Made by a program: the position numbers and the translations under genes. Of a stretch of 64,000 nt of DNA, positions 1,684 to 7,271 are shown one piece after another (positions within the stretch are counted from its first letter, which is position 1; each line of letters opens with the position of its first letter). Where the stretch lies: contig CAVZJV010000014.1 in assembly GCA_963775685.1 (NCBI GenBank), positions 2,240,001 to 2,304,000 of the forward strand, given 5' to 3'. Source of the DNA: Candidatus Bathyarchaeota archaeon (GTDB lineage Archaea > Thermoproteota > Bathyarchaeia > Bathyarchaeales > Bathycorpusculaceae). A model generated the notes under the pieces. That model was not told the DNA's origin, ran no database searches, and saw only the letters and a program-made list of their open reading frames with translations.

Positions 1684-2210
1684 TTGGGTCTCTTCCTATA
1701 CAGCAAATAACTTTGTAGACTAATATTGGTTTTTAGCCGTTTAGCTCTCAGTTTTATTTATTCAAGTAGCTGCTGCTTTAAGTTGAATTATGAGAAAGAA
1801 TAGTTGTTCAAAGTTTTTTCTCAATTGAAGAACAACACCAATTGTGTTTGCATTTTTCGGTGGGCTTGTTTTGGGGTGCCTTTTTACTTTAGACTTGTGG
1901 CGTCTGCAGGTTGCGTCTGGAAAAGTCACAAAACGTCACAAAAAGTCAAAAGCGTCATGTGGGAAGAACAACAAACTTGTTTTTGCGGAGTTCTAAGTCA
2001 AAGTCACATCAGGAATAATTGTTAGATTTAACATTATGCAAGTCTTGGTTCAAATTATGTTTTAGTGCAATATTGCTGAAAAATTTTGGTATTTGTTAGT
2101 TTTGGAAAGCTATGGAAGTTGAAGATTCGATGCAGGGTAAACATAGTTGATCTGAAAGATTATGCAGTGCAAAAACGCTGTTAATCATCTTCTCTGGCTT
2201 TGTTTACTGA

Positions 2211-2868
2211 TTAGTTTTCGTATTTTGTTGGGTCAGCGACGCCTGTTTCCTGAAAGGCTTTTTTGCGGTTTCGCAAGATTCGCATATGCCACAGTGTTTC
2301 TGGCGCCGACGGTAGCAGGACCATGTGAGTTCGAAAGGCACGCTTAATTCTGCGCCTCTATTGAACAAGTCGGATTTGTGTTTACCGCTGAAGGGTGCTT
2401 GGATGCTGATTTCTTGACATGTGCCCAATTTTGCAGTCTTTTCAAATGCTTCGTAGAATTCTCTTCGGCAATCAGGGTAGAACGGTTCATCTGAGCCTTG
2501 TGCGCCGTAAAAGATCTATGTCCGCACCAACTGCGACGGCGTAGGCAACTGCTGCTGAAAGGAAGATAGCGTTGCGGAACGGGACAATGATGGGCTGGCA
2601 CTGAACTCGGAGGTCAACGGGATGTTGCTGTTGCAAAGTGAGGTTACATTGCTGAAGATTTCCTTTAGAGCAGAGAGATCGACAATTTTTGTTTTGGTGC
2701 CGAGTTTATAGGCGATTTTTTGTGCGCATTGGGTTTCTTTCATTGCGATTTGTCCGTAGTTGAAGGTTATGGGGTAAATTTGGTAGCCTTGTTTTTTTGC
2801 CCAGTACGCGACTGTTGCGGAGTCAGGTCCGCCGCTGAGAACGATTACGCATTTTTTTTAGGGTTCAT
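2211..2868 (-). CDS. queC: 7-cyano-7-deazaguanine (preQ0) synthase, several frameshifts
   Basis: Read across frames: VLSGGPDS, FNYGQ, KETQCAQKIA, APFSGKHKSD, TWSCY..KHCGICESC, ADPTKYEN*. Confidence 0.9.
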
Positions 2869-3405
2869 TTATTGTTCCTCTCTTTTAATGGAGGTTTTTG
2901 ATAGCTCCGAACCATCTTTGGAATATGCCTGTTCTTTTCAGTAACTTGAAAATTGGCCATCCGACTGAGTACGTCATGCAATAGTGTTTCCAATGGAGAC
3001 GTAAGCGATAGTCAGGGAAGAAGTGGCAGTACCGTACAGGGTCAGACAGCATCCATCCGACTGTTGTGCCTAAGACAGCGGAGTAAGCGACGCATGTTCC
3101 AATCACTGTATAGTCGTTTTTAGTGCGTTTGTAAATGTAGTAGACTACAAAGGACATGCAAATGAAGGAATAGTGTTGAGAAGTCGATGGACCAAATGGC
3201 GAAGAAATGTTTCCAACAAATACTCCTATTGTGTGACCTAAAACCCCTGGCGATGCCCAGCAATGGGAACTGCTCCCAGCAAGGATCGGCTATTCGAAGT
3301 TGAATTGGTCCATAAGAGAATAGTCCGAGGTATACGACAACTAATAGCTGCATAAAGTGAGCATAAATTGCTATAAGGGCTATATCTTTAGATGTGTATT
3401 TTCAA
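2869..3405 (-). CDS. queT: QueT-family queuosine-precursor transporter, frameshifted
   Basis: SKDIALIAIYA..., FSYGPIQLRIAD signature; hydrophobic; stop codon abuts queC start (TAAATG). Confidence 0.8.
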
Positions 3406-3410
3406 TGCAT

Positions 3411-3477
3411 TTCTCCCTACTCCCGGGTTTTATTTTTGGTTGGCGGAACGGGTAGGAGAATCCACTCACCCGCCAAT
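3411..3477 (-). promoter_or_regulatory. Structured 5' leader of queT-queC, candidate preQ0/preQ1 riboswitch
   Basis: TTGGCGG/CCGCCAA stem; loop TTCTCCTAC complementary to the SD region GTAGGGAGAA; A-rich linker; TATA-like element at ~3500-3513. Confidence 0.5.
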
Positions 3478-3570
3478 TGCCTATAAAAGTTCCAATGTCC
3501 CCTAAAAAGCTTTAGTTAAACAATTTAATTTTGAAAAGGTTCTTGCAAACATCTTAGATTCAAAAACTAA

Positions 3571-3950
3571 GTTGATGAAGAGTAAGACTCTCAATTTGAC
3601 CAAACATTTTCAAAGTAGGCAACCAACACTTTTACGAACTCAGGATTGTCTGATCATAAACTTGGCGCAATTTCATTATCATACACCGTTCTTACACACA
3701 TGTTCGCATTCTTTCCATCATAGATCGCTGCCTTAATTGGGACAGCGTTAATTACACATCGAACCTCGAACAATGGATTAATTTGTCTCTTTATCATCTT
3801 GATAAATTTCTCGTCACTGCATCTCTGTGTTATGATCCGAATTTTCACCCCTTTCTTCAGAGTCTGCTGATATATTTGAAAGTGACTAAAAAACAACGGT
3901 CTGATAGTAAACCAGTCACCCATAACGTCAATGTTGGTTTTTGCATTTGA
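3571..3950 (-). pseudogene. C-terminal fragment of a TrmB-like transcriptional regulator
   Basis: KKGVKIRIIT, AAIYDGK, PSL*SDNP..VAYFENVW; in-frame stop; no N-terminal HTH. Confidence 0.55.
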
Positions 3951-4272
3951 ATCCTCAAATTCAAATTGAGTTGCTTATGGTGGCTCTTTTTAGATAAAAA
4001 AATTGCAATTTTTCTTTTTTTGTTATGTCTTTAACAATTATACTATGTTGCGCTCGGTCAGCTAAAAGATACTTTTTCATTACATTTATTCAATAGTTAC
4101 ATAATGTTTGATCGATTACTTGGTGCTGATAAGATAGTTTGATTGCGACTTTTTATGCTTTGATGACCAAAAATAATCTTTCCACACACGTCTGGCCATG
4201 GCAATTTGTTAGTCAAGAAAGTTTGACTAAATTTAGTCAAGGAAATTTGACGAAAATGCATTTTAAAGGTGG

Positions 4273-4479
4273 ATGAAAATAGGGAGTCAATGGAGAGATG
4301 AGCAGGATATGGCGTTAAACCACTATATAATAAACCATAGACTTCTGATACAAATGCAGAAGAACGGATGCATTTTCTGTGCAATATGTCATCAACCCAT
4401 CGTTGAAGGGCAGCGAGTAGCTTCCAGAAAAAGCACATCTGTGCGGCATGAAGAATGTTATCAATGGTCATTTGTTTAA
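4273..4479 (+). CDS. Small putative Zn-binding protein
   Basis: CAIC...RHEECY motif in a 68-aa ORF. Confidence 0.5.
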   Translation: MKIGSQWRDEQDMALNHYIINHRLLIQMQKNGCIFCAICHQPIVEGQRVASRKSTSVRHEECYQWSFV

Positions 4480-4680
4480 CGCAAAGCCTCGCAAACTTTG
4501 AAATAAGCAAGAAGGGATGCAAGTTAGATAAGGCGTCTCGGTTCGTTAACATAGCAAATAAACGTGCACAGCTAACAGCACCTTTTGCGAAATATTAATA
4601 AATCTCTCGGAAAGATTAGATGATGCTACTTCCTAGTGGATGGCATTCCGATTAAACGGAGTTTTAGGGAGCACAAAACT

Positions 4681-5330: not shown

Positions 5331-7271
5331 TTGGCTCGAACCCAAGAAAGACGGACCCAAGAAAAAGACAAAGAAAAGATAGAAATAAGCCAATACATTT
5401 TGCAGAAAGTTCCTCGTGAAGCAGAAGTTACTCGAATCGAATATGAAGGTCCCATGCTGGCGGTTTACACTAAAAAACCAGAAATCTTAGTTGACCAAAG
5501 TAGTATTGTGGCTGAAATCGTCGGAGTCATACGAAAAAGAATAGTCATCCGACCTGACCCGTCCGTGCGAATTCCTGAGGTAGAAGCAGAAAAAATCGCA
5601 CGTGAACTTATTCCTGCGGAAGCAGAAGTAACAGACATTAATTTTGATCCAAGCCTTGGCGAAATCATCATTGAAACTAAAAAGCCAGGTCTAGTCATTG
5701 GTAGAAACGGAGCGGTCCTGCAGGAGATTATAAAGAAAACTAAGTGGCGCCCTCATGTGCTTCGGAGCCCACCGATTAAATCCAAGATTGTTACTCACAT
5801 GCGCCATTACCTTCACTCTGAGAGTAAAGAGCGCGAACGCATCTTGCGTACAGTGGGAGAACGTATCTTTAGACCCAAAACATTTGATGTGGGCGACATA
5901 CGCATGACCGTTTTAGGTGGCGCTCAGGAAGTCGGACGCAGCGCATTTCTGATAAAAACACGCGAAAGTGCCGTACTTTTGGATTGCGGCATTCACCCGG
6001 GTTCCCAGAGACCTTTTGAGTCATTTCCACGTTTTGATTGCCCAGAGTTCCAGCTTGACTCTTTGGATGCGGTTGTTATAAGTCATGCTCATCTTGATCA
6101 TTGCGGCTTAGCTCCCTTCCTCTACAAATACGGCTATGATGGTCCAGTTTACTGTACCGCGCCGACATCAAATTTGATGACTATGCTGCAACTCGATTAT
6201 TTGGATGTTGCAAGTAAACAGGGTGTTACCCCCTTCTATGACCAAAAAGACGTTCGTGAATGTGTCTTGCACACGATTCCCCTCCGGTACGGTGTTGTCA
6301 CGGACATTGCACCCGACATCCGTTTAACCCTGCACAATTCAGGCCACATATTGGGTGGCGCTATGGTTCACCTTCACATCGGTGAAGGTTTACATAATAT
6401 TGTTTACACCAGCGATTACAAGTTCGCACGGACAATGCTTCTTGAGGCGGCCGCTACGGAGTTCCCGCGAATCGAAACAGTAATCACCGAGAGCACTTAT
6501 GGTGGCACCGAAGACTTTGCGCCATCCCGAATTGAAGCAGAAGAAGCCCTGACCAGAGTCATCAACCAAACCTTGGAGCGTAAGGGTAAAGTTCTCATAC
6601 CAGTTCCCGCTGTTGGCAGAGCCCAAGAAATCATGCTCATCATCAATGGCTACATGAAGCGTGGTTTAATGAAGGAGGCGCCAGTGTTCATTGAAGGTAT
6701 GATTAGCGAAGCCACAGCAATTCACACAGCCTACCCCGAATACTTGGGCAGGGAAGTCCGCCACAGCATCCTGCATGAAGAAGTCAATCCATTCCAATCA
6801 GACTACTTCACCATTGTTGAGCACCCAAGCATCCGCCAAAGCATAATTGATGGCGAACCATGCGTTGTCTTGGCTACTTCAGGCATGCTTGAGGGCGGTC
6901 CAGTTATCGAGTACTTTAAAAACTGGGCAAGCAACGAGCGGAACACAATCATATTTGTCAGTTACCAAATCGAAGGCACCATGGGGAAACGTGTCCAGAA
7001 GGGCGTGAGCGAAGTCACCATGATGGATAACGAAGGCAAAATGGCAGCTTTGTCAGTTAAAATGCAGACAGAGTCAATTGAGGGGTTCTCAGGTCACTCG
7101 GACAGACGCCAACTCGTAAACTACCTGACTCATCTAAGCCCAAAGCCTGAACGCATATTCGTTGTCCATGGTGAAAAACAGAAAACTATGTCATTTGCTA
7201 ACTTTATGGATAACAAAGCGGGCATAAACACGGTTGTTCCAGCTATTCTGGAAACTTATAGGCTACTGTAA
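5331..7271 (+). CDS. fttA: Beta-CASP ribonuclease aCPSF1/FttA (transcription termination factor)
   Basis: N-terminal KH domains (KPGLVIG), SHAHLDH, GHILG, FSGHSD, VHGE; adjacent to psmB. Confidence 0.95.
   Translation: MARTQERRTQEKDKEKIEISQYILQKVPREAEVTRIEYEGPMLAVYTKKPEILVDQSSIVAEIVGVIRKRIVIRPDPSVRIPEVEAEKIARELIPAEAEVTDINFDPSLGEIIIETKKPGLVIGRNGAVLQEIIKKTKWRPHVLRSPPIKSKIVTHMRHYLHSESKERERILRTVGERIFRPKTFDVGDIRMTVLGGAQEVGRSAFLIKTRESAVLLDCGIHPGSQRPFESFPRFDCPEFQLDSLDAVVISHAHLDHCGLAPFLYKYGYDGPVYCTAPTSNLMTMLQLDYLDVASKQGVTPFYDQKDVRECVLHTIPLRYGVVTDIAPDIRLTLHNSGHILGGAMVHLHIGEGLHNIVYTSDYKFARTMLLEAAATEFPRIETVITESTYGGTEDFAPSRIEAEEALTRVINQTLERKGKVLIPVPAVGRAQEIMLIINGYMKRGLMKEAPVFIEGMISEATAIHTAYPEYLGREVRHSILHEEVNPFQSDYFTIVEHPSIRQSIIDGEPCVVLATSGMLEGGPVIEYFKNWASNERNTIIFVSYQIEGTMGKRVQKGVSEVTMMDNEGKMAALSVKMQTESIEGFSGHSDRRQLVNYLTHLSPKPERIFVVHGEKQKTMSFANFMDNKAGINTVVPAILETYRLL

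Follow-up and report, generated by a model that had tools for sequence, protein, structure and literature searches.

A leader RNA of about 65 nucleotides (nt), found in archaea upstream of queT and other genes of 7-deazaguanine metabolism, is almost certainly a real, conserved and structured cis-regulatory element. The copy described here lies on the minus strand at 3476-3411 of a 64,000-nt stretch of a Candidatus Bathyarchaeota archaeon genome (the window; G000:C14:2240001-2304000), immediately 5' of the remnants of queT and queC. G000 is the window's own genome, a 3.06-Mb assembly that is 96.9% complete; throughout, G### denotes genomes, C## contigs and L### individual loci, and positions without a label are those of the window. 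As read from alignments of the leaders, the covarying fold is an H-type pseudoknot composed of a short stem (P1), a crossing helix (S2) that takes up the Shine-Dalgarno (SD) region, and an A-rich linker. Because the leader precedes pathway-specific genes, contains a conserved unpaired core at its junction and is analogous to preQ1 riboswitches, we consider that it probably represents a translational OFF riboswitch of new fold for preQ0 or a closely related 7-deazaguanine; small-molecule binding, the identity of preQ0 as the ligand and the OFF direction are each something that we infer. We see an even chance that it constitutes a fourth structural class of 7-deazaguanine riboswitch, one that is preQ0-specific, archaeal (Bathyarchaeia, Nitrososphaeria, Methanomethylicia and Asgard archaea) and built on its own SD-burying pseudoknot.

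A covarying pseudoknot at the Shine-Dalgarno region

The strands of the leader follow one another in the order P1 5' strand, a long loop L1, S2 5' strand, UU, P1 3' strand, A-rich linker L3 and S2 3' strand. P1 comprises 5-7 bp (GGCGG/CCGCC), while S2 comprises 12 bp and joins a loop to the SD region through strands of the form ..CUCC[C/U]AC-CCG and CGG-N-GU-N-GGGAG.., across the UU junction and a linker ending in ..AUAAA-N-CC. The parts of the window copy are the following:

3503..3508 (-), TATA-like box TTTTTA, at a conserved position with its own first base 34 nt upstream of the start of P1
3470..3476 (-), P1 5' strand UU-GGCGG, with its core at 3474-3470
3461..3469 (-), junction GUGAGUGGA, in which a G-U is near-invariant and GUGG (3465-3462) is the 5' strand of an optional local hairpin, P2
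3465-3452, 3464-3453, 3463-3454 and 3462-3455 (-), pairs of P2, standard throughout
3449..3460 (-), anti-SD strand UUCUCCUAC-CCG, the 5' strand of pseudoknot helix S2, of which 3455-3452 double as the P2 3' strand
3447..3448 (-), two-base junction UU leading from S2 to the P1 3' strand, with an invariant second U and a first base that divergent copies give as U, C or A
3440..3446 (-), P1 3' strand CCGCC-AA
3426..3441 (-), A-rich linker L3, which ends in AAA-N-CC and differs in length among copies
3411..3425 (-), S2 3' strand CGG-(GA)-GU-(A)-GGGAGAA, with the SD core GGGAG
3410-3408 (-), start codon ATG of the queT pseudogene, directly after the S2 3' strand

Much of this outline had been proposed in a sequence-only reading of the window, and it can be recovered base by base. 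The minus-strand sequence quoted there is present exactly at 3476-3411; the 7-bp stem consists of UUGGCGG (3476-3470) with CCGCCAA (3446-3440), in standard pairs only; the A-rich tail is the linker at 3441-3426; and the pairing of a loop with the SD region is borne out by the complementarity of UUCUCCUAC (3460-3452) to GUAGGGAGAA (3420-3411). All 23 listed pairs of the window copy are standard pairs.

The same reading had suggested that queT/queC leaders be aligned and examined for covariation, and both the stem and the loop-SD pairing covary in the two alignments that we scored. Alignment A2, made with plain MAFFT, contains 137 distinct leaders that remained after removal of L001 (a copy of the window), L131 and the exact duplicates L046, L053, L090, L106, L149 and L150; five pairs of P1 and twelve pairs of S2 were scored, and in a slid control the partner strand was shifted by one to three columns. 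On A2, 93.7% of the cells of P1 and the SD helix are paired versus 37-57% in the slid control, and compensatory change occurs in 10 of the 17 pairs. Both partners have changed in 218 cells versus 73.6 in shuffles, and 0 of 500 shuffles attained the observed value, although the sequences are relatives and shuffle counts, here and below, therefore overstate significance. As most A2 leaders had been collected with a pattern in which some stretches of the motif are prescribed, the count was repeated on alignment A3, which consists of 60 leaders found by QueT homology or by a covariance model, with no pattern, and fitted to the model. This gave 90.6% paired cells versus 40-55% slid and 141 double-changed cells versus 52, a number that again 0 of 500 shuffles attained. 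Taken by itself, P1 is paired in 99.3% of cells on A2 and 96.6% on A3.

Individual substitutions illustrate the exchange of partners. The closing pair of P1 occurs in all four Watson-Crick forms (GC in 93, AU in 10, GU in 8, UA in 5, CG in 2 and other combinations in 2 among 120 pattern matches), and an inner P1 pair is altered in L021 (GGCGC/GCGCC). Covarying forms of the SD helix include ACAUCUC/GAGAUGU in the Nitrososphaerota-labelled L099, GUCUCU-UGC/GCA-GAGAGAC in L113, CCGAC/GUCGG in L158 and L164, and CCUCGC/GCGAGG in Asgard copies. In an alignment-free duplex test, from which L151 was omitted because its extracted sequence has an incorrect 5' end, as it was from the TATA scan described below, the leaders' own strands gave -16.8 kcal/mol versus -14.9 kcal/mol for swapped strands (0 of 2000 permutations).

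Conservation outside the helices centres on the junction. The spacing between the P1 3' strand and AAAN ranges from 4 to 20 nt, while AAA and CCC form invariant columns; the search pattern imposes GCGGGU, CCGUUCCGC and AAAHCCCGG, and invariance at those positions is thus partly by construction. In the pattern-independent copies, the G-U after P1, AAA-N-CCC and the four inner P1 pairs are nearly constant, and the AAA-N-CC end of the linker is retained in 59 of 60, with L182, an Asgard copy, carrying ACAU. In architecture the leader resembles preQ1-I: it is an H-type pseudoknot in which P1 is short, L3 is rich in A and the second helix extends to the SD sequence, and both P1 and S2 covary.

Genomes, genes and promoters around the leader

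QueT is present in 50 of 61 related genomes. Upstream of 30 QueT loci, which were retrieved from 60 related genomes through protein homology, the same motif was found 23 times, a second leader termed motif 2 six times, and neither at L011. A wider scan with an exact pattern, covering one genome per species, matched at least 120 stretches, at least 117 of them labelled archaeal. Among the matches listed, 96 are labelled Bathyarchaeia or Bathyarchaeota, 11 are Nitrososphaerota-type, 3 Methanomethylic-, 3 Asgard, 3 unclassified archaeon, 1 Methanocella and 3 bacterial. Of the matches with a bacterial label, L131 (Kiritimatiellia) seems to have arisen by chance and was left out of A2. L130, L132 and L139, on contigs labelled Acidiferrales bacterium, Krumholzibacteriaceae bacterium and Methanocella sp., have a genuine-looking motif together with QueT, which may reflect either mis-binning or horizontal transfer.

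A covariance model, R1, has exactly one match in the window's genome, the leader itself, which at 74.8 bits scores on par with functional copies. R1 matches occur in 93 of 151 genomes of the class sample (72 of the 95 high-quality ones), in 28 of 151 genomes of the phylum sample and in 17 of 101 genomes of the Asgard phylum sample, three seed genomes counted in, nearly always as one copy per genome. Inspection of 35 low-scoring and Asgard matches revealed a QueT homologue behind 34, with the remaining one, L157, cut by a contig end.

Genes following the 137 leaders were scored within 3.5 kb on the same strand, with at least 1500 nt of downstream sequence in only 105 loci. Under these conditions the leader is followed by QueT alone in 81 cases, QueT-QueC in 42, QueE-QueC in 3, QueC in 3, QueC-QueT in 2, QueE in 1 and none of these in 5; the first recognisable gene encodes QueT in 123 of 137 cases, QueC in 5 and a QueE-like protein in 4, with none recognisable in 5. 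Pfam and NCBIfam models confirm QueT in six representatives, and in L087 the QueC match exceeds the TIGR00364 cut-off. For three radical-SAM proteins, the best-matching models are the five for QueE, at E values of 1e-25 to 1e-31 but with scores that fall short of the equivalog cut-offs. The tie to 7-deazaguanine genes drawn in the sequence-only reading is borne out, with queT, queC, queE-like and queD genes all found behind leaders, and the element can be described by the general hallmark of a riboswitch, a covarying structured 5' leader that recurs before the genes of one pathway.

The position of the motif relative to start codons and promoters is likewise constrained. An SD-like core, separated by a median of 8 nt from the automatically called start codon, lies within the S2 3' strand in 131 of 137 leaders, matching the SD sequestration that had been proposed from the window alone: the long-range helix that covaries is the one that buries the SD region. 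TATA-like hexamers were sought upstream of 134 leaders, and 96 of 132 matches start at -36..-30 from P1, with a peak of 29 matches at -34 and an AT content of 86-91% at -32..-29 upstream of P1. Archaeal promoters place the TATA box centred about -26, and the position of these boxes combined with this textbook geometry predicts transcription to begin a few bases upstream of P1, which for the window would be near 3478-3480. A transcription start downstream of the stem, the finding that would have told against the sequence-only reading, is thus the opposite of what the conserved box predicts. The window and its closest relatives also have a second TATA-like sequence, TTTTAT(A) at 3487-3482 (-), at a distance of just about 13 nt upstream of P1. 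Its use would place the transcription start within the motif; it is not conserved family-wide.

Two loci in this collection have unusual genes behind the leader. In L192 (G016:C4:508432-511502), from a second genome of the genus, an intact leader of 75.5 bits is followed by a 40-amino-acid (aa) QueT stub, a frameshifted QueC spread over three frames and an intact QueD (PF01242, 130.6 bits), an arrangement that could represent either repeated decay or an assembly error. In L072, a 277-aa open reading frame (ORF) with no Pfam or NCBIfam match follows the motif (5727-6557, -) and precedes QueC; it could encode an unrecognised transporter or a QueT-like protein.

Motif 2 occurs at L008, L009, L015, L018, L028 and L031, where it lies about 55 nt ahead of the QueT start (L009:1425-1482 is an example). 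The QueT proteins behind it belong to a second subfamily, with about 30% identity to the first. Its sequence, GGUAG-UU-UCCG-UAUAUAAC-CUACC-UUAAAAAA-CC-CGG, looks like a small pseudoknot of the preQ1-I type and has the AAAACCCGG tail in common with the main motif. No Rfam family matched motif 2, the six copies are too alike for covariation analysis, and a strict pattern for it found no copy in 121 family genomes, of which just four, G000 among them, belong to the genus.

A candidate preQ0 switch and its relic in the window

In the mechanism that we propose, the leader would form the extreme 5' end of queT mRNAs (queT-queC, queE-queC and queC mRNAs included), and a free 7-deazaguanine, most likely preQ0, would bind at the P1/S2 junction, where the near-invariant G-U, UU and AAA-N-CCC would line a candidate pocket. 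Bound ligand would lock the pseudoknot and bury the ribosome-binding site, leaving the transporter and biosynthesis genes untranslated. Without ligand, at least in Bathyarchaeia, the anti-SD strand would instead be held by the upstream GUGG(G) as hairpin P2, and the SD sequence would be exposed.

P2 and the SD helix are mutually exclusive because the P2 3' strand belongs to both. On A2, the hairpin, GUGG(G)/(C)CCAC, is paired in 90.2% of cells versus 41-70% slid, with 26 double-changed cells versus 7.7. For the window copy, the nested P1+P2 fold, in which the SD sequence is free, is the computed minimum at -19.9 kcal/mol, while P1 alone gives -9.6 and the SD helix alone -9.4 kcal/mol; these energies suggest that the difference between the two states is plausibly small enough for ligand binding to decide between them, a rough argument since no pseudoknot energy model was used. 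The same fold is also what would be expected if the roles were reversed and a ligand stabilised P1 and P2 to free the SD sequence, and P2 does show some covariation. Such an ON switch is nonetheless highly improbable, as there is little physiological reason for a product to induce both its own synthesis (queC, queE) and its uptake (queT), the SD helix and not P2 is flanked by the invariant CCC-GG and AAA, and P2 is weak or missing in short-loop and divergent copies. An alternative pairing put forward in the sequence-only reading, GGCGGGU with ACCCGUU (helix CGGGUG/CACCCG), has no support from covariation: 95.4% of cells allow it, yet compensatory changes number 0 and 426 of 500 shuffles do as well. 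The helix may still occur as a third conformer.

With regard to the ligand of the proposed OFF switch, preQ0 is the product of QueC, the end product of the archaeal pathway and the base that archaeal TGT inserts, and feedback sensors usually read the end product. These considerations make it unlikely that the leader is a riboswitch for another compound, be it 7-carboxy-7-deazaguanine (CDG), preQ1, archaeosine base or a different purine imported by QueT. To our knowledge, preQ1 is not a normal intermediate in archaea, which counts against preQ1 in particular. The gene content of the genus favours such another ligand, since leaders there front queT-queC and in G000 the leader stands before a queT-queC remnant with no QueD or QueE detected; queT-queC without these enzymes suggests salvage of CDG, the substrate of QueC. 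Bacterial QueT, for its part, is linked to preQ1 in the available text of a 2024 review (PMC11625349).

Besides the kinship of the aligned sequences and the invariance imposed by the pattern, several observations weigh against an OFF riboswitch for preQ0. Folded as a single sequence, the window leader has a minimum free energy of -24.8 kcal/mol and a z-score of +0.93, with 162 of 200 shuffles folding at least as well. P2 fades on A3, where 71.7% of cells are paired versus 38-65% slid and double-changed pairs are no better than in shuffles (292 of 500), such that support for the hairpin is moderate on A2 and weak on the divergent set. The surroundings of the proposed pocket also vary on A3, with C to U changes in the junction-proximal CCG, opposite G (a wobble pair), and junctions that read UU, CU, AU, AGUU or UGCU, with the final U constant. 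In one variant (variant B; L159-L163 and L176), AAACCCC-AAAA-SD replaces CCCGG and the CGG is absent. The cytosine that pairs with the ligand in preQ1-I, supplied by an AC or UC just 5' of the P1 3' strand (PMC11625349, in the part available), is missing here, and U stands at that position in 60 of 60 pattern-independent copies. Bacterial-labelled contigs occur among the matches listed, of which L130 and L132 look genuine, and many of the source genomes are metagenome-assembled. Lastly, the 12-bp SD helix might be strong enough to form without a ligand.

The strength of this helix in the window, together with the loss in variant B of part of the helix beside the proposed pocket, would fit a pseudoknot of the same shape with no small-molecule effector, that is, a constitutive, temperature-dependent or protein- or small-RNA-controlled mask of the ribosome-binding site that tunes queT translation. 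We give this a low probability, as near-invariant unpaired nucleotides (G-U, U and AAA-N-CCC) persist in Bathyarchaeia, Nitrososphaerota-labelled, Methanomethylicia and Asgard copies, a degree of conservation that is typical of a ligand pocket and needless for a simple mask. Moreover, the motif precedes three or four different genes of one pathway, and no conserved protein gene accompanies it except the que genes. The copies of variant B retain CCG though its CGG partner is gone, which suggests a role for CCG beyond base pairing.

In the window, the leader has outlasted the genes that it would have controlled. It lies directly 5' of the queT-queC operon named in the sequence-only reading, as claimed there, but both reading frames are broken:

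2890..3410 (-), queT pseudogene, which begins ATG CAT TGA with a stop at codon 3 and has QueT-like pieces across frames
2246..2854 (-), queC pseudogene, matching PF06508 with 160.5 bits over model positions 1-208, with one in-frame TAG

A three-frame reading of the region shows QueT-like and QueC-like peptides scattered over all three frames. PF06177 (QueT) had no match in a six-frame search of the whole genome G000, and tblastn recovered two QueT pieces only, at 52-58% identity. The PF06508 match leaves the queC remnant recognisable as QueC, yet it has the in-frame TAG and out-of-frame stretches, its middle part and C-terminus lying in different frames. No other QueC-like locus in the genome exceeds 25 bits. 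The nearest relative in hand, L092, is 82.7% identical at the nucleotide level and has intact queT (PF06177, 84.7 bits) and queC (PF06508, 211.4 bits), and its leader differs from that of the window by one A in the linker. Comparison with L092 reveals about 19 frame-breaking indels in the window, located from 3412 to 2270 and for the most part outside homopolymer runs; about 15 fall in queT, and those on the queC side are at 2858, 2596, 2516 and 2270. Every frame of the remnant has 7-16 stops, while neighbouring genes, 229 to 646 aa in length, have uninterrupted frames.

Since queT and queC are broken by multiple frameshifts, the window leader is most likely a relic that is intact but probably regulates nothing. 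That it is still in use, either because the frameshifts are assembly errors or because it controls the intact nitroreductase gene downstream (1132-1683, -), is improbable: about 19 frame-breaking indels in 1.2 kb, mostly outside homopolymers, and stops in every frame stand beside open neighbouring genes, and the SD helix masks only the dead queT start. The points in its favour are the functional-looking score of the leader and its near identity to that of L092, and the fact that the nitroreductase gene is intact and has counterparts beside queC in several relatives. Among sequencing runs sought for the locus, five DNA runs were found, none of which contained more than 0.06 of the sampled words; no RNA run was found.

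G000 retains an intact archaeal-type TGT (C14:719592-720563; 276 bits, in a 521-aa open frame), and no QueD, QueE or YhhQ/Vut_1 was found in this genome. An intact TGT in a genome with broken queT and queC raises the question of where the preQ0 for archaeosine comes from. The nitroreductase-family gene downstream of the queC remnant matches PF00881 with 115.4 bits; homologues of 74-87% identity adjoin queC in L027, L106, L146, L121 and L052, and more distant ones (33-40%) lie near queT/queC in L022, L069, L095, L023 and L093, and the protein may be linked functionally to 7-deazaguanine metabolism. Around the leader, the 2.9 kb at 1700-4600 hold only short ORFs besides the que remnants, those at 3654-3923 and 4097-4552 having no Pfam match, and GC content falls to 33-38% at 3400-4600; further decayed genes may lie upstream of the leader.

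Comparison with known riboswitch classes

The sequence-only reading had judged by eye that the leader departs from the preQ1-I consensus and had called for comparison with the Rfam preQ1-I, -II and -III models, and this comparison agrees with its judgement. No Rfam 15 family matched, and no preQ1 class (RF00522, RF01054, RF02680) appeared in any scan, whether of the whole window at gathering score, of positions 3000-4000 or the 91-nt leader at E<=10, or of 20 related loci at E<=1; noise listings such as IsrR, at 7.8 bits, were far below gathering scores and were set aside. No archaeal preQ0 or preQ1 riboswitch and no 'preQ1-IV' was found in a search of full-text literature that lay outside most subscription journals and supplements. 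The 2024 review of preQ1 riboswitches describes three classes, and the word 'archaea' is absent from its text (PMC11625349).

If our reading is correct, the leader would be the first riboswitch class with an essentially archaeal distribution, and it would show directly that SD-masking riboswitches are at work in TACK and Asgard lineages. It would fill the archaeal gap in the preQ1 family, so far bacterial-looking, and add a new fold to a classic ligand family, and it would mean that 7-deazaguanine salvage is under translational control in uncultured Bathyarchaeia and Asgard archaea. At about 70 nt, the RNA is of a convenient size for binding experiments and structure determination, and archaeal genetics could adopt it as an inducible switch.

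Among the known classes, preQ1-I (RF00522) shares with the archaeal leader an H-type pseudoknot, a P1 of about 5 bp, an A-rich 3' linker, a second helix at the ribosome-binding region and the regulation of queT and que biosynthesis genes. In contrast to preQ1-I, the archaeal motif is found in archaea and is about twice as large, with an L1 of 13-20 nt and an optional hairpin versus 2-3 nt, and a second helix of about 12 bp versus 3-4 bp.

The other two classes, preQ1-II and preQ1-III, are HLout pseudoknots confined to bacteria, which, according to the available portions of two articles on these RNAs (PMC11625349, PMC11602147), differ in size and layout: preQ1-II has helices P1-P4, with U-A-U triples beneath the ligand, and occurs in Bacillota alone, while preQ1-III is about 100 nt long with its SD sequence far from the pocket. 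Structures show both to use the gamma binding mode, with ten shared pocket nucleotides and U-A-U triples (PMC11602147, in part). Like the archaeal leader, preQ1-II (RF01054) lies upstream of queT, buries the whole SD sequence in a pseudoknot helix, acts on translation only and has an embedded hairpin; in the archaeal motif, however, the hairpin is in L1, just two U's are conserved at the junction, and the preQ1-II model does not match. PreQ1-III (RF02680) is likewise found upstream of queT and pairs a loop anti-SD with the SD sequence, whereas the SD helix of the archaeal motif abuts the conserved core and the model gives no match.

Within the archaea, the point of comparison is the fluoride riboswitch, described in the accessible text of a 2021 paper as the only experimentally determined natural archaeal riboswitch (PMC8241225). 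The example from Thermococcus kodakarensis resembles our candidate in being natural, archaeal and thought to act on translation, and differs from it in ligand, fold and gene set; the fluoride family is common to bacteria, whereas the leader described here is almost only archaeal-labelled.

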